NCBI GenBank assembly: GCA_026770705.1
Contig: JANJGN010000071.1
Span: 1-64,000, forward strand
Direction: 5' to 3'
DNA length: 64,000 nt
Source of the DNA: Isurus oxyrinchus
Taxonomy: Eukaryota
This document shows positions 39,699-63,001 of this stretch, piece by piece. The translations under genes and the position numbers were made by a program. The notes beneath the pieces are model-generated. The model did no database searches, had not been told where the DNA came from, and was given only the letters and a program-made list of their open reading frames with translations. Each line of letters begins with the position of its first letter. The stretch's first letter is position 1.

Positions 39699-39985
39699 GA
39701 GTGACGTCAGAGGGATGGTCTATGAAGGCGCTGCCTCGGAGGGCCATCAGCAGCTCTTGTGTGGTTATTCCGTGTAGCTTTGACTTTCCTTCCCACTCTT
39801 ACACAGCACTGCACGGAGCTTGGTATAAATATTGGTATAGATGGAAATATACCATCACATACACCAAAGATCCCAATTATCGGGTGGCCACATTCGTGGG
39901 ACGTGCTAAAATAATCGGCGACTTGGAAGGGAAGAATTGTTTGGTGAGGACTGATAGTCTCAGAGCTGAAGACAGTGACGTGTAT
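39699..39985 (+). pseudogene. Siglec-like pseudogene A, truncated V-set Ig exon
   Basis: Acceptor cctttcag|GA in phase with the leader. Translation GVTSEGWSMK...SSCVVIPCSFDFP...GAWY...GDLEGKNCLVRTDSLRAEDSDVY has the Siglec Cys pattern. It breaks into Gypsy sequence after DVY and stops at 40000. Confidence 0.85.
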
Positions 39986-41090
39986 TGCACCCAATTCTAA
40001 ATCTTTTCACCAATTAGTCGACCTCATGAAGATGTGTTTTCAGCTGAAGCCGTGGGTAATAATGCAGAGGTTTAAGTTTAACTCCAGAGTAAGGGCCCAG
40101 GGAGAGTCCATCGCAACCTATACAGTGAAGTGGAAGCAGGTGACTGAGCACTGGGACCTCGGAGACACACTCAATGACATGTTGCGGGGCCGATTGGTTT
40201 GTGTCGTTCACCCCAACGCCATTCAGAGCCGTTTACTCGCAGAAGCCGACATCGATTTGAAGCGCACCATGGAAATAGCGCCAGGCATGGAAAGTGCTGG
40301 GAGAGACTGGCGGGATTTACAGGATGTACAACATGGCACCAGTCCTCAGCTGGGACAGGAACCAACCACCGGGCGTGAGGCTCAAACTGGAGTGAGAGAG
40401 AGAGAGAGAGAGACAGCCGCCAAGCGAGAGACAGTCTCTGCCGCTCCAGAAACTAAAAGGCTTTGTGGGAGTATTTCAGCAGCAACTCCGAAGTTGGCCT
40501 GTTCTCGATGTGGGGGGCATTGAGCACGTACTGGACACCTGCAGGTTCAAGGGGGCAGAATGCCATCACTGCCACAAGAAAGGGGCGGGTAATAAAGCAA
40601 TGCAGGGTGAAATCGAGACAGCCCATCAGGCAGTGCACCAACATGATGGAAGTGAATAATATCACAGAGCCTGAAGCTGCTGATACCGATGTCTATTCCC
40701 TGTCCAATGTCACAGTGGTAAAAACTGAACCTATAACCATCACAACCCAAGTGAATGGGCAGCCACTAGTAATGGGGCAGATACGGGAGCCTCAGACACA
40801 GTGGTGGAAGAGCCCACATTTAAACAGCTAAATGAAGGAACCCAGACGCTGAATTTAGAGCAAACAATGGATCAGCTGAAGACACACACTGGAGAATCCA
40901 TACAGGGAAAGGACCTCATCCCAGTACCTGTGTCCTACAGGCAGCAGACAGCCCAGCTTCCAGTGATCATAGCGACAGGTGAGGGCCCTAGTCTTCTGGG
41001 CCGAGACTGGTTCCAGAAAACCAAGCTCAGCTGCTCTGAAATGTTTCACTGGAGGAGTTGCTGAGTTGCTGGGGGAATATGAGAGTGTAT
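39986..41090 (+). mobile_element. Degenerate Ty3/Gypsy gag-protease fragment
   Basis: Gag motifs QRFKFNSRVRAQGESIATY and LNDMLRGRLVC; zinc knuckles CSRCGGH and CHHCHKKG; protease DTGAS at 40780 and GPSLLGRDW. Frameshifted. Confidence 0.9.
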
Positions 41091-41357
41091 CTCGGGAATG
41101 AGTTTGAAGAATTGAAGCATCCTCACAGGCTGCAAGTGTCCCTCAGGTCAGAGTTGGTTCCACTGGAAAATCCTGAAGAGAAAGAAAGCGAATTCTGTGC
41201 CGCTCTGAGCAAACTGAAGAAACAGTTGGCAGGGAAGACCCAACCATGTCCAATGTTCCAGGAGGAAGGCAAGAGATACAAGGAAGAGACTGAAGAGCTG
41301 AAGATTCAGCTGAATGAAACCAAAGAGGCAGTTACAGTATCACAACAAGTTTACAGT

Positions 41358-43190: not shown

Positions 43191-43764
43191 AAGGACAGAG
43201 AGGGACAGACAGAGTCGAGAGACACCCAGAATGAAAAAAAACACAGTAAACACTGGAAAATAAACATTCTGGTCTGATCTGGTCTTGTATACCTTCAAAT
43301 GGAACACCAGTAAAACAGGGAAATAAGAGTACTGGGCCAAACTGTTAGAGATGGTCACATTTAGAGAGAGAGAGAGAGAGAGAGAAAGAGGGAGACACTG
43401 AAAGAGATAAGGACAAGGAAAGAAAGAGTGAGAGAGAGAGAGACAGACAGAGACACACAAAGAAGTAGAAAGAAAGTGATAGAGATGAAGCAGGAGAGAA
43501 TGAGGAGAAAGATAGATAGATAGAGAGAGAGGATGGTAGAGAAAGAGAACGAGAGGAAAAGAGACAAAGGCAGAATGTGATGGAACACTGAATCCTTGTC
43601 TATGCGTTTTGAAATCCAGCCCAGAACTATCATTGGAAGATTCAGCGAGTGTCCAGTACAGGGGACCCAGCCCAACCTTCTCATCCTGACCTTCCCAGTG
43701 GGGCTGAAGAGGGCAGAGAGGAAACCTTCCTCTGTTATTCTGTTGTCGAATAAACACAACAATT

Positions 43765-44376
43765 CTGGAACTCTGCCCTTTCTATCTCACGGATTAGAAT
43801 ATAAGGGGGCAGAGGTCATGCTTCAGTCTACATAAAGCCCTGGCTAGACCACACCTGGAGTCACTGTGAGACATTCTGGGCCCCACACCTTAGGAAGGAT
43901 ATATTGACCTCGGAGGGAGAGCAGTGTCAGTTTACCAGAATGAGACCGGGACTCCAAGGGTTAAATCACAAGGAGAGATTAAACACAAACTCGGCTTGTA
44001 TTCCCTGGAAGTTAGAATGTTAAGCAGGAGATTTGATGAAAGTTCGCATGATAATAAGGGGAACAGATCGGGGGCGATAAAGAGAAACCATTTCCCCTGG
44101 TTGGGGGGAGTCTGGGACTCAGGGTCAGAGCCTAAAAAGGAATTAAATTAGGAAGTACAAAGGGTGGGAGAAATTTGGAACTCTCTTCCCCAAACAGGAA
44201 CTGATGCACGATCAAGTTGTTCATTTTAAACCTGTGAGACTGATAGATTTTTGTTATCCAAAGGTATTAAAGGAGATGGGACAAAGCCATATGGGGCTAG
44301 TTTGCAGATCAGCCATGATCTCATTGAATGGTGGAGCAGGCTCGAGGGGCCAAATGGCCTCCTCCTACCCTCATGT
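43765..44376 (+). mobile_element. CR1-type LINE 3' end
   Basis: GLEYKGAEVMLQ-like coding remnant followed by the tail gatctcattgaatggtggagcaggctcgaggggcc. Confidence 0.8.
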
Positions 44377-44719
44377 AATAGAAACTTACCTGTCAGAAGC
44401 CAGTTTATGTTGATGTGAGTCTGAGTCGATGACTGAACCCAGTTGGTAACTTGTTCCATACAAAGCAAGAACGTTCATGCCCTTCAATGTTCCTGGATAA
44501 ACCATGAACAAAGCTGGTGACAGACAGTCTCCACATGGTAAACAGTTAACCCCTAAACCTCAGCGTAAATCAGTTCCCCCTCGAGGCCCCTTGTCCAAAA
44601 TAAAAGCAACGCACACAATTTGTAAAATAGTAAGTGTAGCAATGAGAGGAGTAAGGGGTTAGGGGGCATGCGGTTCACCTGATTTGCCGACATAAGAACC
44701 AGCCCCTCTGTTTTTGCTA

Positions 44720-44945
44720 TGTTGTGTTGCGTCAATATGAACACATATCTGCACAAGGTGAAGGGCGTTGCGGAGGGACTGATAGTTCTCGGTGCCAGAC
44801 AGTCAATGTCCCAGTGACCTTACTGCTGGTCCCAGGCCAGTGGGACAGGGAACATCGACACTGCAATATCCAGAAATGGGTGTGATACCACACAGCAACC
44901 CGCCCCCGGCTGTCCCCTTCAAGTGTTTCAGGTATAAGAGCAGGA
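44720..44945 (+). promoter_or_regulatory. Candidate TATA promoter of the small two-exon gene
   Basis: TATAAG 44933-44938, GC box cccgccccc ~44899-44907, GGTGCCAGAC 44791-44800, TTGCGTCAAT 44727-44736. ATG lies 77 nt downstream of the TATA start. Confidence 0.5.
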
Positions 44946-45009: not shown

Positions 45010-45102
45010 ATGGGAAGCTCCCAGATGAAATGGCGACTTGTCTTGTTCACTCTGACTTTGCTGCTCTCCCTGCAGCTGAGTCACTTCTTCTCCTTGTCGA
45101 GG
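45010..45102 (+). CDS. Signal-peptide exon of a small secreted-peptide precursor (hepcidin-like exon 1?): MGSSQMKWRLVLFTLTLLLSLQLSHFFSLSR
   Basis: ATG at 45010, basic n-region plus Leu-rich h-region, phase-0 donor AGG|gtaagc after 31 codons. Not in the ORF track. Hepcidin identity is inferred from exon size, phase and locus context. Confidence 0.55.
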
Positions 45103-45300
45103 GTAAGCTAAGAGATGTCCCTCTGGGTGAGGTGTTTCTTGCACATGACTCTACGTCTACCACCCAGATAGACTGGTCTCTTCCGCAGTTTGATATTATT
45201 ATGTTCGTGCCTTTAATATTGTCGCCCTCTATGAATTTAACATCATTTCCTTCTGTCGTTTCCCCTGAAATTCTCATTCTTGTTTTCAATCCCTCCTCAG

Positions 45301-46160
45301 CCACTCCCTATCTCTGTAACCTCCACCAGGCCTTACAACCCTCCCTATCTCTGTAACCTCCTCCAGCCCCTACACCCCTCCCTATCTCTGTAACCTCCTC
45401 CAGCCGCTACAACCCTCCCTATATCTGTAACCTCCTCCAGCCCCTACAACAATCCCTATCTCTGTAACTTCCTCCAGCCCCTACAACTGTCCCTATCTCC
45501 GTAACCTCCTCCAGCCCCTACAACCCTCCCTATCTCTGTAACCTCCTCCAGCCCCTATAAACCTCCCTATCTCTGTAACCTCCTCCAGCCCCTACAACCC
45601 TACCTATCTCTGTAACCTCCCCCAGGCCCCACAACCCTCATGATCACTGTAACCTCCTCTAGACCCTACAACCCTCCCTATCTCTGTAACCTGCTCCAGA
45701 CCCTACAACCCTCCCTATCTCTGTAACCTCCTCCAGGCCCTACAACCCTCCCTATCTCTGTAACCTCCTCCAGGCCCCACGACCCTCAGAATCACTGTAA
45801 CCTCCTCCAGCCCCTACAATGCTCATGAACTCTATAACGTCCTCTCCACACTATAACTCTCCCTATCTCTGTAACCTACTATGGCCCCTACAACAGTATC
45901 TATTTTGGTAACCTCCTCCAGCCTCTACAACCCTCCCTACCTCTGTAACCTCCTCCAGCCCCCACAACCCCCCCCATCTCTTTAACCTCCTACAGCCCCT
46001 ACTCACCTCCCTATCTCTGTAACCTCCTACAGCCCCTACAACCTTCCCTATCTCTGTCACCTCCTACAGCCTCTAGAACCCTCCCTATCTCTGTTACCTC
46101 CTACAGCCTCTACAACCCTCCCTATCTCTGTAACCTCCTCCAGCCGGAACAACCCTACCT
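45301..46160. repeat. 37-bp L2-derived minisatellite, opposite orientation to 42065-42690
   Basis: Monomer tgtaacctcctccagcccctacaaccctccctatctc, preceded by the L2 ORF2 remnant (ILILVF...PYLCNL). Confidence 0.9.
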
Positions 46161-46214
46161 AAATCTCTGGTCTGAGTCTCACTCCAGGGAATTCAGTCCC
46201 ATAACGTCGGTCAA

Positions 46215-46812
46215 CACTCCGTGCTGAGGGAGTGCTGGACTGTCAGAGGGTCAGTAGTGTGGAAGTGTTGCACTATTGGAGGGACAGTACTGAGTGAGTG
46301 CTATACTGTCGGAGGTCAGTACTGAGGAAGTGCTGCATTGTTACAGGGTCAGTACTGTGGAAGTGTTGCACTGTCGGAGGGTCAGTACTGAGGTAGCGCT
46401 GCACTGACGGAGGGACAATACTGTGGGAGTGCAGCACTATCGAAGGGTTAGTACTGAGGGAGTGCTGCAGTGTCAAAGGGTTAGTACTGAGGGAGCACAA
46501 CAATGTTGAATGAGACATTAAACCGAGTCCCCCGTCTGCCCTCTCGGGCGGGTGTGAAAGATCCCACAGCCACTATTTGGAGGAAGAGCAGGGGGTGTTC
46601 TCCCCGGTGTCCTGGGACCAATATTTATCCCTCACCCAACATCACCAAAAACAGATGATCTAGGCCATGATCACATTGCTATTTGTGGGATCTTGCTGTG
46701 CACAAATCAGCTGCCACATTTCCTACAGTGTGAGTGCACTTCAAAAACATCCTTCAGTGGCTGTGAAATGCTTTGGGATGTGGTGAAAGGCGTTAGAGAA
46801 ATGCAAGTCTGT
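46215..46812 (+). mobile_element. Deu-domain (SacSINE1-like) SINE with a tandemly expanded 33-bp segment
   Basis: 33-bp repeats, then gagacattaaaccgagtccc...aaagatcccacagccactatt..., ending aaatgcaagtct. Confidence 0.8.
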
Positions 46813-46909
46813 CCTCCTCCCCCTCTCTCTCCTGTACCTCTCTCTCTCTCTCTCCCTCTCCCTCAATCCTCCTCTCACTTTCTCCCTGATAAATTCTTTC
46901 TTTTTGCAG

Positions 46910-46966
46910 GTTGACACTGCTTTAGGTTCTTCGACGATTGAGAAATCTGTGGATTCCCCGGACACG
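46910..46966 (+). CDS. 57-nt phase 0-0 exon VDTALGSSTIEKSVDSPDT (hepcidin-like prodomain exon 2?)
   Basis: Strong acceptor ttctttctttttgcag, donor ACG|gtaggt, in frame with 45010-45102. Confidence 0.55.
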
Positions 46967-47654
46967 GTAGGTGGAAATTCATTCCTTATTTTAAGGTTTC
47001 TCCCTGCTCGTTTCTTCCACAGAAAGTTTTCTGATTTCAAGCTGATTTCAGTGGCAGTCTGTCTCGGTTATACTCAGGAGGCATGTTTGAAATCGAACCC
47101 CCCCCGCCCCCTTTTTTTGCAAAGCTGGGAAGAGGCAATTCCAAGGAAGTGAACATATCCCCACAGGAATTTTAAATGTAACCCACGCCGGGAATAGTGA
47201 GAGGGAGACTGATCCAGCCTGGGAGTGGGTTAAAGAGAGGCTGGGAGTCGAGAGTCGGAGAGAGGGATGGAATGGGGGAGGGAGGGATTGGAAGAGAGAG
47301 ACAGAGAGTGGGACGGGGAGGGGTGAAAGGGAAAGAACATAGGTGGGAGAGAGTGACAGAGGGAGAAATTAAAGAGATGCAGAGTGAGGGAAAGTGAAAA
47401 GGGAAGAGTGATTGTCCAAGAGAGAGAAATTAACAGGAAAGGGAGAGTTACAGAGTGAGCGAAAGTTACAAAAATAGTGTGAGAGAGAGGGAGAGATACA
47501 GAGTGGGAGAAGGAGACAGGGGAGAGAGAGGGAGAGAGACAGGAAAAGGGAGAGAGGAGAGAAAGATTGGGAGAGAGGGCAATTGAGAGGAAGAGTAGGA
47601 GAGAGAGAGACAGGGAGAGGAGGAGTGGATGAGAGGAAGAGAGAGAGATATGGA

Positions 47655-47995
47655 GCAGGAGAACACCTCCTCCGGTCCCGATGTTCCTCCAAAATCTCTG
47701 ACATTACTGCATCTCCCGGGTCCCCCTGATTCCCATCGCTCCACCATTGGTGGCCGTGCCTTCAGCTGCCTGGGGCCCTGAGCTCCGGAATACCCTCCCT
47801 TAACCTCTCTGCCTCTCTCTCTCTCTCTCCTTTAAGACGCTCCTTAAAAACTGACATCTTTGACCAAGCTTTTGGTCACCTAACCCTAATATCTCCATAT
47901 GTGACTCAGTGTTAGACGTCTCTCTGATTTACGCTCCGGTAATGTGGGCTGGGACATTTTGCAATATCAGAGGCGCTGTGTAAATGCAAGTTGTG
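47655..47995 (+). mobile_element. L2-type LINE 3' end
   Basis: cgctccaccattggtggccgtgccttcagctgcc...tcctttaagacgctccttaaaa...aaatgcaagttg. Confidence 0.7.
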
Positions 47996-48494
47996 AGTGT
48001 TATGTGGAAGGGAGACCCCAGGCGGCAGTCAGTGCCAGAGACTGGAGTCATTGTGTGCAGACCGTATCTAATCTCTCCGAATGCACAATCGGTTTGACTG
48101 TCAGCCAAAGCACTTTTGATATTTGATCCTTCTAACTGTTTATAACCAGGCCTACATCAAACACCGAGAGGCTGGTTAATCAACAGACACCTTAGAGGAT
48201 CAAGTGAAAGACAAAGAGGACTTGCATTTCTCTAGCGCCTTCCAACACATCAGGACGTCCCAAAGTGTTTCGCAGACAATCAAGTGCTTTTTTTCTTTCA
48301 TGTGACGTCACTGATGTACTGTGGGAAAAGAATCAGCCATTGGCGCACAGTAAGATCCCACAGACAGCAGCATGATAATGACCAGCGCGCTCCCAGTACT
48401 TGCACTGCAAGTGTCAGTTCAGGATGTGTGCTCGATTCTCTGCAACTCTCAGCTCTGAGTTAAAAGGACCACCAGGCATAATTGAGAAATTACC

Positions 48495-48915
48495 GAGCTG
48501 TCGGAGGGTCAGTACCGGCGGGGGGGCAGGACAGTCGGAGGGTCAGTACTGAGGGGGTGCTGCATTGTCAGACGGTCAGTCTTGGAGTGCTGCACTGTCA
48601 GAGGGTCAGTACCGGCGGGGGACTGCACAGTCGGAGGGTCAGTACTGAGGGGGTGCTGCATTGTCAGACGGTCAGTACTGAGGGAGTGCTGCACTGTCAG
48701 AGGGTCTGGGCTAAGGGAGTGCTGCACTGATGGAGGGTCAGTACTGAGTGAGTGCTGCACTGTCAGAGGGTCAGTGCTAAGGGAGTGCTGCACTGTTGGA
48801 GGGTCAGTGCTAAGGAAGTGCTGCACTGTACAGAGGGAGTGTGAGACTGACAGAGGGTCACTATTGAGGATGTGCTGCACAGTCGGGGGGGTCAGTACTG
48901 AGGGAGCACTGCACT
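48495..48915 (+). repeat. 33-bp Deu-SINE-derived minisatellite (paralogous array 51570-51852)
   Basis: Tandem cagtactgagggagtgctgcactgtcagagggt. Confidence 0.9.
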
Positions 48916-49061
48916 GCCATAGGTGGTTTCTTTCAGATGACATGAGAGAGAGGGTTAAACCCACTGAGACAAGACTGACACTAGCGAGGCTGCTCAATAA
49001 TTTAACCCTATCAGTGCCAGTAAATAATGTGAGGATGTCTTCTGTTTCCATTTCTCTGTAG

Positions 49062-49310
49062 GGTAAACAGAACGTGCTGATTACTGAGCCCCGGAACACA
49101 ACCAGAGACACAACTAGTGAGGGGGAGACCCCAGCTCCGCGGGGTCTCTCTGAAGGTGCATTGGGAGGCGATGCTGGACATTGGCACATCGACAATCCCA
49201 ACGGCCTTCTCTACGCCAATCCCCAAGTATTGAGGATGTCCAGTGATGATGGGTCTGTCCACAGGGAAGAGGAGACGGAATACGCACAGATCAGGTTCGA
49301 GCATAACTGA
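49062..49310 (+). pseudogene. Orphan Siglec-like terminal cytoplasmic exon A (ITIM-like LLYANP, ITSM TEYAQI)
   Basis: Acceptor tttctctgtag|GGT in phase 0, 82 open codons then TGA; AATAAA at 49843. No transmembrane exon found upstream. Confidence 0.8.
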
Positions 49311-49508
49311 ATGAGAAATGGGGAGTGGGAGTGAGGAGGTGTGAGGGTGGGGGGTAGTGATTGAGTTTCCTGGGAACAGGAAACAACCCACTGGGGGAGA
49401 GGGGGAGAGAGGGAGGAAGGGATGCGATTGGGCTGCGGTTGCTGTGGTTTGGAATGAAATGCTTCTCCAGAGAGGACTGGATGCTGAGCCACTGGGGATA
49501 GAGATTCA

Positions 49509-49547
<39 letters not shown>

Positions 49548-49879
49548 TCTTTGTCTTTCTTTCTGTGTCTGTCACTCATTCTCTATCTCCAGCTCCTCCT
49601 TTAAGATGCCCGTTAATAACTGACTTTGTTGACTCAGCTGTTGGTCTCCTGTCCCTTATATCTCCTCATGTGCCTCAGAGTCAGGTGAAGATGTGACTAA
49701 CAATTCCCGGATGAGCCTTGGGACATTTTGCTACATTAAAGGTCCTATATAAATGCAAGTAGTTGCAGTAAGTCTGATCTGCTTCGATTAACAATGGAAC
49801 CACAAAGGCTCCTTCGACAGGGCGTGTGTGCAGGAGGATCCCAATAAATACATTGAGCTGTGAGATTTTTAATTCTTAC

Positions 49880-50332
49880 ATCGAATGTGGCTGTCACTGG
49901 TGATGCCAGCATTAATGCCCATCCCTAATTGCCCTTGAGAAGGTGGTGGTGATCAGCCTTCTTGACCCGCTGCAGTCCATGTGGTGTAGGTACACCCACA
50001 GTGCTGTTAGGGAGGGAGTTCCAGGATTTTGACCCAGTGACAGTGAAGGAACGATGATATATTTCCAAGTCAGGATGGTGAGTGGCTTGGAGGGGAACTT
50101 CCAGGTGGTGGTGTTCCCATGTGTCTGCTGCCCTTGTCCTTCTAGATGGTAGAGGTCGTGGGTTTGGAAGGTGCTGTTGAAGGAGCCTTGCTGAGTTGCT
50201 GCAGTGCATCTTGTAGATGGTACACACACTGCTTCCACTGTGTGTTCGTTGTGGAGGGAGTGAATGTTTAATGTGGGGGATGGGGTGTAGATCAATCGGG
50301 CTGCTTTGTCCTGGATGGTGTCAAGCTTCTTG
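49880..50332 (-). mobile_element. Non-LTR retrotransposon 3' end (related + copy ~53120-53375)
   Basis: ORF2 C-terminus ...SFTVTGSKSWNSLPNSTVGVPTPHGLQRVKKADHHHLLKGN* plus the tail shared with the SINE at 42845. Confidence 0.8.
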
Positions 50333-50466
50333 ATTCTGTGCTTTGTATAGAACTGATTTAAAGAGACAGTCCCAGTCGTTGGTCTAAGATTACAGTGGGC
50401 TCTGTGTCTGTGCTACACTGACTCTCTGCTATATGATAACCACAGTGTGATATTGTGTTATTGCAG

Positions 50467-50548
50467 GAGAAAGACAGCGATGGAGGAGAGAGTTTCAGGG
50501 ACCAGAGACATTGCATTGACCCCCAGTCCACTCTCTGTGAAGCACCAG
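50467..50548 (+). pseudogene. Orphan juxtamembrane cytoplasmic exon (x-RKTAMEERVSGTRDIALTPSPLSVKHQ)
   Basis: Acceptor tgttattgcag, donor CAG|gtacag. 82 nt gives phase 2 to phase 0, in frame with the exon at 51997. It starts with basic stop-transfer residues. Confidence 0.7.
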
Positions 50549-50683
50549 GTACAGGAGCTGTTTACACTCACTCCAAAGCTTCTATCTCAGTGTGTAGACA
50601 ACACGTGTCCCTGATTCCCAGCCCAGTTACCCACTGATTTGTACCTGTGGAGTCAGCAATGGTTCAGTATCATGCTGTCTCTC

Positions 50684-51441
50684 TGTTATGACACAGCAAC
50701 TGGTAAAGGCTGTTGTTTAAAATCCCAGAGGGAAACTTTAAACAACTGTCATAACCTATATTTCCCAGTGGAATGTTTGAGATGCAGCTCTAAATTCAGG
50801 AATAAGACCATCAGTTCTTGAGATGGGTTTATATCAAACTACATGAGACATTTATTAATTTTCACAAATTAATCATATGCACATGGCTACAAACTAGTAT
50901 TATCATAACTATTTAACAAATTCCCAAACTAACGTCCTCTAAGACAACCCATAGACTTTAAGCAGATTCCAAGCGAAGCATTTTCACCTCAGAAATTCCA
51001 AATGAGGTTCCTTTCACTTTGGTTCCTTTGCAGACAGGTGTAGGCTTACAGCTGCTTTGATGTTACAAGCCTCTGCTCTGCACACACAAAACTGCTCAAG
51101 TTATACCCAGTGCTTCTCTTTGAATGTAAATTCTCATTGTATCATCAGGACCTTTGATCTCCATCTCTTCTAACTATAAATCCCGTTTCATAGTATCAAT
51201 TTTATTAGTAATATAAACATTGATTGGTTTAAGAATTCACTCCCAGGCTTTGAATCCTCCTTTTAAAAATGCAATATGCCTCTTTACCTCTTTGTTTACA
51301 TCTCAAAACTACTATACATAAAAGTACCCAGACCGGCTGTCTTTAATCCAATTAAAACACACACACACACACCCACAGACTAAACCTCTGTTTAAAAAGA
51401 CAATTTCCAATTACAATACATACATTAATAGATTCATAACG
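50684..51441. mobile_element. Solo LTR
   Basis: Termini TGTTATG...CATAAC(G); paralogous to 55054-55882. Confidence 0.75.
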
Positions 51442-51996
51442 CTCAGTCTCTGACCCTTCATCTCTCTCTCTCTCTCTCATCCTCTCTCTGATTACAAGAT
51501 TCATGTTATTGAGCCTCACACCAGGCACCTGAGTGCAGAATCCAAGCCGACACTCGCCAGAGCCATTACCGAGGGAGTGCAAGACTGACAGAGGGTCAGT
51601 ACTGAGGGAGTGCTGCACTGTCAGAGGGTCAGTACTGAGGGAGTGCTGCACTGTCAGAGGGTCAGTACTGAGGAAGACCTGTACTGTCGGAGGGTCAGTA
51701 CTGAGGGAGTGCTGCACTGCTGGAGGGTCAGTACTGAGGGAGCGCTGCACTGTCGGAGGGTCAGTACTGAGGGAGTGCTGCACTGTTGGATGGTCAGCAT
51801 TGAGGAAGTGCTGCACTATCGAAGGGTCAGTACTGAGGGAGCACTGCACTGCCATAGGTGTTTTCTTTCATAAGACATGTGAGAGAGGGTTAAACCCACT
51901 GACCCACGACTGACACTAACGAGGCTGCAGAATATTTTAACCCTATCAGTGCCAGTAAATGATGTGAGGATGCCTTCTGTTTCCATTTCTCTGTAG

Positions 51997-52245
51997 GGTA
52001 AACAGAACGTGCTGATTACTGAGCCCCGGAACACAACCAGAGACACAACTAGCGAGGGGGAGACCCCAGCTCCCCGGGGTGTCTCTGAATGTGCAGTGGG
52101 AGGCGATGCTGGACATGGGAACCCTGACAATCCCGACGAGCTTCTCTACGCCAATCCCCAAGTCTTCAGGGTGCCCAGTGGTGATGGGTCTGTCCACAGG
52201 GAAGAGCAGACGGAATACGCACAGATCAGATTCAAGAGAAACTGA
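51997..52245 (+). pseudogene. Orphan Siglec-like terminal cytoplasmic exon B (LLYANP, TEYAQI)
   Basis: Duplicate of 49062-49310 with the same acceptor; open frame to TGA; AATAAA at 52853. Confidence 0.8.
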
Positions 52246-60499: not shown

Positions 60500-60865
60500 T
60501 TGGACTGTCACAAGAGTGGAAAGGTGACACTCCACAACAGGTGACAGCGCAGGAAGGTTCGTGTACACAGATCCCATGTCATTACAGTTATCCATCACAT
60601 TTGGAAAAGCAACCACGAGTTGGAATCTGGTTTAATAATGAGGAATGGAGAACATTGTCTATAGCCTTTCACTCCAAGGATCACAGTCACGAGTTACCAC
60701 GGTTCCACCATCGGACCCGGCTGTCTGGAGACCTGAAAGATGGTGACTGTTCCCTGATTATAAACAACATCAGACGGGAAGATGCAGGACCTTATTTTTT
60801 CAGAATAGAATTTGACAGCAGAAATAAATACAGCTACTATCCTGTAAGCCAGCTTCACGTTTCAG
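60500..60865 (+). CDS. Siglec-like gene B, V-set Ig exon with the essential Arg (MAG/CD22/CD33-family type)
   Basis: ccacag|TT...CAG|gtaag, 366 nt, phase 1-1. Motifs QEW, EGSCTQIPC, GDCSL, EDAGPYFFR (AGA 60802-60804) and KYSY. Confidence 0.93.
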
Positions 60866-61724: not shown

Positions 61725-62021
61725 ATTTCACAGATAAACCCACGATATTCCCTGCTGAAATTATTGCAGGAAAGCGTGTGGATGTAAGCTGCACCTTCAA
61801 CACAACGTGCAATGGAACAGCAGCACCTGTCTTAACCTGGGACACTCCCACTGACGTACCTGGATCAGTCTCAAACACTGTAACTCAGCATGGTGTCAGT
61901 CTGACCTATACTTCTGTTCTGACCCTGATCCCATCACTCAAACACCACGGACACACTCTCAGCTGCAGAGTGAGATATCCATCTGTTTCATCGGAGCGGA
62001 CCCTCGTACTAACTGTGCAAG
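61725..62021 (+). CDS. Siglec-like gene B, Ig domain 2 (C2-set)
   Basis: gttag|AT...AAG|gtaag, 297 nt. DFTDKPTIFP...VSCTFNTTCNGTAAPVLTW...HGHTLSCRV, including the extra inter-domain Cys. Confidence 0.92.
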
Positions 62022-62240
62022 GTAAGAACGGACACCCTTCATTCTACATTAGCTAGAAAGCTCTACATAGTACATTGCAAGATCCCACAACTGCATTGTG
62101 TTTCGCAACAAATCAATAGTCTTTAACTGATACAAATTCACCTCTGACACTGCAGCAGTCCCTGAATACTGATTCTCCAACACTGCAGCACTCCCTCAGT
62201 ACTGAGTCTTGTTCACAATGAAATCTTTAATTGTTCTTAG

Positions 62241-62333
62241 ATGCACCACAGAATCTCTCATTTACTTCGCTTGATATGATTAATTCTTCATCGTTCAATA
62301 TAATTGAGGGGTTCATAACCATCACTGTGGAAT
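62241..62333 (+). CDS. Siglec-like gene B, internally deleted Ig mini-exon (31 codons)
   Basis: cttag|AT...AAT|gtgagt, 93 nt, in frame. Equals exon 63002-63283 minus 189 nt. Confidence 0.65.
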
Positions 62334-63001
62334 GTGAGTTAATGCAAACTTCAACATCACTCACACACACAAACACACACACATGCAGAAACATACACAA
62401 TCTCAACTCACACAAGCACACACACACACACACACACACACACATGCATAGACAGACACACGTGCGCACACACACACAAACACACATGAGTGCGTGCACA
62501 CACACAGATCCTTATTTTACAGAAACATACAGACACAAGCCAACAGACACAAACACACACAAAAACATGTGGGTTCCCTCTCCTCTCCCAGTGCTGCACT
62601 GGAGTCTCAGTATCAGCTCCGAATCTGTGTTGAAGGAAGGTAAACTCCAGATCATCAAGACACTGAACTGCATGGAGCAACCTCCTGAACAGAGAATTGT
62701 AGATTTACCCCTCAGTGCTCCATTGGTCAAATACAATTCATTGCCTTTGAAGCCTTTGTGGACATCCTGAGGATCTGAAAGGGAGTTTCCTGCATTCTAG
62801 ATGGACACCTCCACTGGTGGGAGAATGTAACTGCAGTGTGACAGTTTACATAGGCAGTGCCCATTGTAAATGTGAAATAAGTTCTTATCCTGAGGGAATG
62901 TGTACCTGGAAATGCATTCAGACATCAGATACAGAGACATGATGCATGGAGTCTTGCTGTGCACTATATTTGCTCATATTAAAATTTTTCTATGTTTATA
63001 G

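Follow-up and report, generated by a model that had tools for sequence, protein, structure and literature searches.

Hepcidin exons and a Siglec tail in the window

The window analysed here is the whole stretch of 64,000 nucleotides at positions 1 to 64,000 of the Isurus oxyrinchus contig JANJGN010000071.1 (G000:C71:1-64000; C71 below), and it carries the first two exons of a hepcidin (HAMP) gene lying among Siglec-like genes. All features are on the forward strand. Exon 1 (45010..45102) starts with an ATG, has 31 codons encoding a signal peptide and the start of the pro-region, contains a hydrophobic core (9-residue hydropathy up to 2.7) and ends in phase 0 with an intact GT donor. Exon 2 (46910..46966) contributes 19 codons of the pro-region, also in phase 0, with a polypyrimidine tract and AG acceptor before it and a GT donor behind it. 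In human HAMP exon 1 has 30 and exon 2 has 20 codons, both in phase 0. A putative TATA-like box (44933..44938) is located 77 bp 5' of the ATG, and the same box is found in two canonical hepcidin genes on C34, a chromosome-scale contig of 19.9 Mb. The upstream region (43601..44905) is rearranged relative to these C34 genes, and intron 1 harbours a 37-bp minisatellite (45295..46169). Searches for STAT, BMP and C/EBP promoter patterns, with motifs taken from general knowledge, revealed nothing decisive, and an Rfam scan of the sequence gave 0 matches.

Both exons are genuine hepcidin exons and not chance open frames, as the earlier note had supposed from their size and phase. They are almost identical to residues 1-50 of the basking-shark hepcidin. 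In the whole genome 130 first-look candidates were obtained for exon 1 (40 scored, 99-100% identical) and 124 for exon 2 (40 scored, 100% identical). Chance exons, a repeat, FXYD or LEAP2 are ruled out by these genome copies, by the Pfam hepcidin matches described below and by the named hepcidin relatives; the FXYD matches moreover sit on other contigs (C24, C271, C764 and C4051). Exon 1 is also not a Siglec transmembrane (TM) or leader exon, as those are different sequences.

The earlier note had found no cysteine-rich exon 3, and a six-frame scan of the 64,000 bases likewise detected no hepcidin-type cysteine pattern (stretches of N are unreadable). In place of exon 3, with its furin site and 8-Cys mature peptide, we found an exon which that note had overlooked: a Siglec cytoplasmic tail exon (49062..49310, phase 0) with two tyrosine motifs, one ITIM-like and one ITSM-like (the inhibitory and the switch type of immunoreceptor tyrosine-based motif), in frame with hepcidin exon 2. 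It is followed by a short cytoplasmic exon (50467..50548, phase 2 to 0) and by a second, terminal tail exon (51997..52245), which is 90% identical to the first. The remnant of hepcidin intron 2 (46967..48736) is 96-98% identical to intact sister copies. The window copy follows these up to about 48736, while the last Siglec intron is matched from about 48684, so that exon 3 was lost in the zone 48684..48736. This zone lies inside a 33-bp minisatellite (48498-48923) common to hepcidin intron 2 and the last Siglec intron, and ectopic recombination within this repeat likely removed exon 3. An exon 3 hidden elsewhere in the window can be rejected, since none is present in the readable sequence and the junction accounts for its loss. 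The window copy therefore represents, as had been proposed, a truncated paralog and not a functional hepcidin.

The identical hepcidin-Siglec junction was found in 10 of the 15 loci which have exons 1 and 2 but no exon 3. Because it recurs on two contigs (C52 and C71), it represents a real and re-amplified rearrangement, and a mis-assembly specific to the window is ruled out. Six of the ten chimeric loci keep intact exon 1-2 splice sites, whereas four are broken. The fused frame stays open over 133 codons; use of an internal donor in the first tail exon, after 49294, extends it to 238. Among the contigs of four sequencing runs (X1 to X4), a GT..AG joint between 46966 and 49062 is present in a single contig, from X1 (depth 4352, with 27 letters on the shorter side); it was not found in the X2-X4 contigs. 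Judged from the frame, the product is most likely a non-functional, secreted protein of 133 or 238 residues lacking a membrane anchor, probably a by-product which is secreted or degraded.

Further unusual joints touch this region. The Siglec tails are tandemly duplicated, in the window (49062-52245) as well as at 150-155 kb and 239-264 kb of C71, and loose ends in X1-X3 contigs show the internal donor of the first tail exon joined, with the frame kept, to the cytoplasmic exon that follows, which would predict receptors carrying at least four tyrosine motifs. The leader exon of a broken Siglec (38835-38879) is spliced to hepcidin exon 2 at 46910 in X2 and X3 contigs; this joint leads from phase 1 to phase 0 and is thus out of frame. 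X1-X3 contigs also use a cryptic acceptor at 48150, within hepcidin intron 2.

The hepcidin array and its mature peptides

The earlier note had expected one paralog, and this is far too low: about 90 copies exist. With the Pfam hepcidin profile (PF06446) 150 of 151 candidates were scored, and 97 matched at E<=10. Of these, 85 lie on 13 unplaced contigs, which also bear the copies of exons 1 and 2 and which we call the array, two on C34 and ten weak ones elsewhere. The Pfam cut-off is exceeded by 76 of the 85 array matches. Two of the weak matches (G000:C126:1200707 and C988:21589) have identical scores and 2 stops each, and may be a decayed paralog or chance.

For the detailed comparison 103 array loci were compiled: 83 of the 85 Pfam-matched ones, 17 chosen from the exon 1 and exon 2 lists for having no adjacent exon-3 match, the window itself and two in the interval 64-264 kb of C71. 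About 40 further exon-2 candidates lie outside this set. Exon 3 is present in 88 loci (30 on C52, 20 on C71, 8 on C189 and 1-6 on each of the others), so that together with the C34 pair 90 copies are identified; an independent DNA search with exon 3 gave 91 candidates. All three exons are found in 78 loci, and 43 are intact with regard to splice sites, frame and eight cysteines. These 43 encode 21 distinct mature peptides, while the 85 in-frame exon-3 copies encode 40. The furin site followed by an 8-Cys peptide, which the window copy lacks, is thus found in its sister copies.

Splicing of array-type transcripts is shown by GT..AG joints of exons 1-2 and 2-3 in contigs of runs X1, X2 and X4, which share one sample label (RNA guessed; no run is recorded as RNA); expression level, tissue and the number of copies used lie outside these contig data. 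The joints are absent in X5, a run from another organism, of which one exon-1 contig with canonical-type letters is a weak hint only. In 13 X1 contigs exon 2 continues into an array-type exon 3 as a loose end. Two further counts were not used as evidence: exon depths, which are far above those of the introns in the contigs and cannot rank expression, and the canonical-type exon-1 letter (14,917 of 323,687 in X1; 6,350 of 56,362 in X2).

The array peptides differ strikingly from those of the C34 pair. Compared with the basking-shark hepcidin, the mature peptide of 29 residues shows on average 16.5 differences in the array but 2.0 in the C34 genes, while for the 59 residues of the pre-pro part the numbers are 7.3 and 4.5. 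The distances of the mature peptide from Heptranchias hepcidin (9.0 for C34, 17.8 for the array) place the change on the array branch and indicate that the long loop of these peptides is an old shark trait. With the non-coding flanks as a neutral yardstick, 40 intact full-length array copies were analysed: fixed differences between array and C34 occupy 29 of 87 nucleotides in the mature peptide versus 50 of 729 in the flanks (Fisher P=4e-11). Among the array copies themselves the mature peptide has a diversity of 0.040 and the flanks one of 0.018, and common variable sites make up 13 of 87 versus 48 of 750 positions (P=0.008). Exons 1 and 2 are nearly invariant across the array. As the non-coding flanks are only about 9% diverged from C34, the array is a duplicate which arose within the shark lineage.

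Eight cysteines are kept in 83 of the 85 in-frame exon-3 copies, and the two copies which lost cysteines also have a broken exon-1 donor. The hepcidin N-terminus carries ferroportin binding. Both C34 genes have the Ser-His-Leu N-terminus, which occurs in 0 of the 85 in-frame array copies; more generally, no HAMP1-type N-terminus (S-H-L/T-H-F) is found in any of the 85. All 43 intact copies possess an N-x-T sequon. Their furin site reads RQKR in 34, RQNR in seven and HQNR in two, so that Asn replaces Lys in nine of 43. In one sub-family (L155-L158, L164 and L169) the N-terminus is two residues shorter, giving a mature peptide of 27 residues. Upstream of the ATG only about 110 bp are common in place to array and C34 genes, and further array upstream pieces match sequence lying about 3.5 kb and 11-12 kb before the C34 genes; this suggests deletions in the promoter of the founder.

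The Siglec-like neighbourhood

The hepcidin cassette of the window travels together with the remains of a Siglec gene, consisting of the leader exon (38835..38879) and a Siglec-like V exon (39700..39985), which is cut by an insertion at about 39990-41300. By eye this insertion is retroelement-like; it is 98% identical at 82.8 and 171.3 kb of C71, and it cut the V exon before the cassette was amplified. Downstream, the next Siglec-like gene starts with a V-set exon (60500..60865), in which the position of the sialic-acid-binding Arg aligns with that of Siglec-5. Further Ig exons of this gene follow in 61725..64000 (61725-62021, 63002-63283 and 63946 onward), and the gene runs beyond the window, its TM and tail exons being located around 71-73.6 kb of C71. 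In comparisons of the V exon Siglec-5 ranks first (E 3e-15), followed by Siglec-8, sialoadhesin and MAG (about 2e-13), with CD33 also among the best, whereas CD22 reaches only 1e-4. The neighbouring genes thus have the features of Siglecs: a V-set domain with the essential Arg, C2 domains, a TM segment and a tail with tyrosine motifs. In one of the Siglec-like genes C2 exons are repeated up to 7 times.

In positions 1-264 kb of C71 three hepcidin loci alternate with ten V exons of the type at 60500, and each of these hepcidins has the same broken Siglec leader and V exon on its 5' side, which bears out the proposed co-duplication with Siglec genes. The V-exon search gave 1,099 first-look candidates; 150 were scored, all at least 82% identical, and these sit largely on array contigs or on other small contigs. 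Apparently the Siglec-like cluster comprises several hundred V exons on C71, C52 and at least 11 other unplaced contigs, together about 13.6 Mb. In the first part of the window (1-38500) a unit of 9-13 kb, rich in simple repeats and with masked stretches, is repeated in tandem three to four times; no gene was recognised in it, and part of it (33250-35122) recurs upstream of another hepcidin cassette.

The canonical pair on C34 also sits between Siglec-like genes. In the basking shark, one record length (13,667,426) is shared by the sources of hepcidin (XP_078389753-755) and of Siglec-like proteins (XP_078389734-741), and in Heptranchias proteins of both kinds derive from records of 15,743,313. 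The earlier note had proposed an old HAMP-Siglec linkage in cartilaginous fish, and this is seen directly on C34 and receives indirect support from the two other sharks. In human MAG and CD22 are adjacent. The human block has been described as HAMP-USF2-MAG-FFAR (PMC4453067; here and below, papers are cited according to the accessible parts of their text). The same note had named USF2, LSR or MAG nearby as a sign of support, and these were not found beside the shark genes, although USF2 was not searched directly. Matches to the LSR family lie on C18, C452 and C1620 and none on C34, nor is any of the FXYD matches on C34. A stretch of 200 kb of C34 has 893 open frames, and among the 150 longest of them only Ig, reverse transcriptase, GIY-YIG and hepcidin sequences were recognised as neighbours. 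Synteny probes with PF09767 and PF09272 had no matches anywhere and are uninformative.

A HAMP2-like reading of the array and known hepcidins

In our view the array represents an independently evolved HAMP2-like defence family, a reading to which we assign a probability of roughly 0.7. It is likely, as far as can be judged from sequence, that the array hepcidins act as antimicrobial peptides rather than as an iron hormone. That they form a convergent HAMP2-like repertoire of dozens of variants, without coupling to the Siglecs, appears somewhat better than an even chance. The array shares the high copy number and the accelerated change of the mature peptide with the HAMP2 type. Compared with structures in the PDB, the array exon fits best on 1S6W (14.9 bits, human hepcidin 10.1), whereas the C34 exon fits best on human hepcidin (20.2 bits) and 1S6W is not among the matches listed. 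The core of 1S6W equals the sea bass hamp2 peptide printed in PMC8502971, and array and hamp2 have in common C-R-F-C-C-N-C-C, an aliphatic residue after C-G and an Arg behind the final C-C. Three core positions separate sea bass hamp1 from hamp2 (Phe, aliphatic, Arg), and at these the array is shifted towards hamp2; in the loop 38 of the 43 intact copies have P-N-x-T where hamp2 has P-N-x-S.

Several observations weigh against this interpretation. The comparison of the cores is small and weakly scored: the PDB scores of the array (E 0.24 and 9.1) involve one HAMP2 structure, the residues come from one sea bass pair, and the match is only partly HAMP2-specific, as sea bass hamp1 has the first motif's Arg and Asn as well. 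The array peptides carry net charges of only 0 to +4. The signal of selection depends on the flanks as yardstick, and in some flank windows diversity reaches 0.03-0.04, as variable as the peptide. A test on synonymous sites only is not significant (1.5 synonymous versus 15.5 non-synonymous alleles, P=0.50), and relative to C34 pN is 0.339 and pS 0.345, on 14 synonymous sites. The array copies share a history and are not independent, which makes the P values optimistic. Expression support comes from contigs of one sample label, for which RNA is guessed. Finally, 60 of the 103 loci are not intact, and in 39 of 99 exon-1-bearing loci the exon-1 donor is changed from GT to TT. Broken copies were therefore amplified too, and amplification does not require hepcidin function.

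The sequences show the first part of the course of events. A hepcidin of ancestral type lies among Siglec genes on C34, and a duplicate of it, rearranged in its upstream part, was amplified as a cassette inside the very large Siglec cluster. Its mature peptide was altered at most non-cysteine positions, presumably by positive selection, while the eight cysteines were retained, and the copies still differ chiefly in the mature peptide. After removal of the signal peptide a furin-type protease would cut after R-x-K/N-R and release a four-disulfide hairpin of 27-29 residues, which would no longer regulate ferroportin; the C34 pair would retain the iron role. Thus the HAMP1/HAMP2 division of labour of spiny-rayed fish may have evolved a second time. 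The window copy would have lost its exon 3 by recombination into the neighbouring Siglec gene.

The main rival to a HAMP2-like defence family is that the Siglec cluster is what is amplified and that a diverged hepcidin duplicate rides along, its copies shaped by drift and gene conversion and their number under little selection. We consider this unlikely as a full explanation, but it can be partly true together with the HAMP2-like reading. It agrees with the abundance of similar V exons on array and small contigs, with ten of them for three hepcidin loci at the start of C71, with the broken or partial state of 60 loci including multiplied TT-donor and chimeric forms, and with the non-significant synonymous test. 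However, it does not explain why variation is concentrated in the mature peptide next to nearly invariant exons 1 and 2 or why cysteines were lost only in copies already broken, and the founder would still need selection.

That the repertoire converged on teleost residues and is in addition functionally coupled to the co-amplified Siglecs is improbable. As every intact copy has an N-glycan sequon, sialylated hepcidins could be ligands of the linked inhibitory Siglecs, and the cassette would then be a ligand-receptor unit. Slightly more doubtful still is an iron hormone, amplified in dosage or modified, which still binds ferroportin. In its favour, the array has retained eight cysteines, furin site and core promoter, but the N-terminus common to C34, basking shark and human is replaced in all 85 in-frame copies, the array lacks the proximal upstream sequence found at the C34 genes, and a conserved pair still exists on C34. 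It is very unlikely that the chimera of the window is a selected new gene, with hepcidin promoter and signal peptide and a product carrying four tyrosine motifs: in spite of the repeated junction with six copies intact at the exon 1-2 splice sites, the open frame and the X1 joint, a signal peptide without an anchor would bring the motifs outside the cell, away from phosphatases, splice sites are broken in four of ten copies, the joint was seen in one of four runs, and out-of-frame read-through splices also occur at this locus. Duplicated haplotigs or mis-joins as the origin of the copy number are hardly credible. The array contigs are indeed unplaced and same-scoring LSR and FXYD matches on pairs of small contigs point to some redundancy of the assembly, but C52 alone has 30 exon-3 copies and C71 20, only 8 of 103 loci have a partner with a 31-mer Jaccard index above 0.9 (median 0.60), no collinear pairing was seen by eye, and 40 distinct mature peptides exist. 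Two haplotypes could halve the count, and the haploid number is no lower than 30 and no higher than about 90.

Among the known hepcidins comparable with the shark genes are those of other cartilaginous fish. The database protein most similar to the C34 exon-3 region is a basking-shark protein of 88 residues (92% identical), and a profile search with it gave 13 proteins, of which ten were looked up: each is either a hepcidin (from sharks, rays, chimaera, sturgeon, frogs and a lizard) or a further isoform of that basking-shark gene, so that no other family or repeat appeared among these ten. For the array exon 3 no database relative was found in a word-based search of limited sensitivity. The set of chondrichthyan hepcidins of HAMP1 type comprises basking shark XP_078389754.1, Heptranchias XP_067831448.1, Narcine XP_069796063.1 and Callorhinchus A0A4W3GGV6. 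Basking shark and Heptranchias have the same 88-residue precursor, furin site, eight cysteines and long loop as the shark studied here, and in the basking shark the signal peptide and pro-region are near-identical as well. The basking-shark gene (P0001, P0127, P0128; XP_078389754.1) is annotated as 'uncharacterized', an example of how standard annotation misses this family; in two of its isoforms exons 1 and 2 are spliced to unrelated last exons. We found no report of a shark hepcidin expansion or a shark Siglec cluster among the papers listed in searches of the open literature, subscription journals and supplements being outside the search. A study of nurse-shark plasma mentions shark hepcidin once (PMC9207270), and the accessible part of a review on shark immunity gives none (PMC6795676).

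Human HAMP (PDB 1M4F, 6WBV) is a single-copy gene, whose cysteine spacing and N-terminal His motif are matched by the C34 genes. Like the shark genes it has three phase-0 exons and Siglec-family neighbours, but USF2 (no search was aimed at it), LSR and FXYD were not encountered beside the shark genes. The Siglec-like genes of the shark share the essential Arg, the TM exon and the tail with tyrosine motifs with the CD33-related Siglecs (Siglec-5, Siglec-8, CD33) and MAG, whereas hundreds of V exons, tandem tails spliced in frame and interleaved hepcidins distinguish the shark cluster from CD33-related clusters.

HAMP2 has been reported only from ray-finned fish (PMC3978493, PMC6240063). In sea bass Hamp1, but not Hamp2, lowers ferroportin (PMC5665920), and Hamp2 protects against infection (PMC5665920, PMC8502971); the net charge of seabream Hamp2 spans -2 to +6 (PMC11043163). 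Like teleost HAMP2 (sea bass hamp2, 1S6W, seabream hamp2.1-2.14, croaker LcHamp2-1 to 2-5) the array is multi-copy, evolves fast beside a conserved HAMP1 and lacks the Ser-His-Leu N-terminus, while it differs in its longer, shark-type loop and in its position inside a Siglec cluster. The array cannot descend from teleost HAMP2, as its non-coding flanks are approximately 91% identical to those of the shark's own C34 genes. The array has about 90 copies, compared to 15 hepcidins in seabream (14 hamp2 and hamp1) and six in croaker (PMC3978493). While the split into an iron hormone and diversified antimicrobial peptides has been described only for ray-finned fish, where the papers cited give no more than 15 genes, an independent split in a shark would be new. 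If this is true, the shark has about three times as many intact genes with similar residue changes, and with the 21 natural variants encoded by its intact genes one could test which residues turn a regulator of ferroportin into a defence peptide, in a lineage in which an old linkage of hepcidin and Siglec genes is supported as well.

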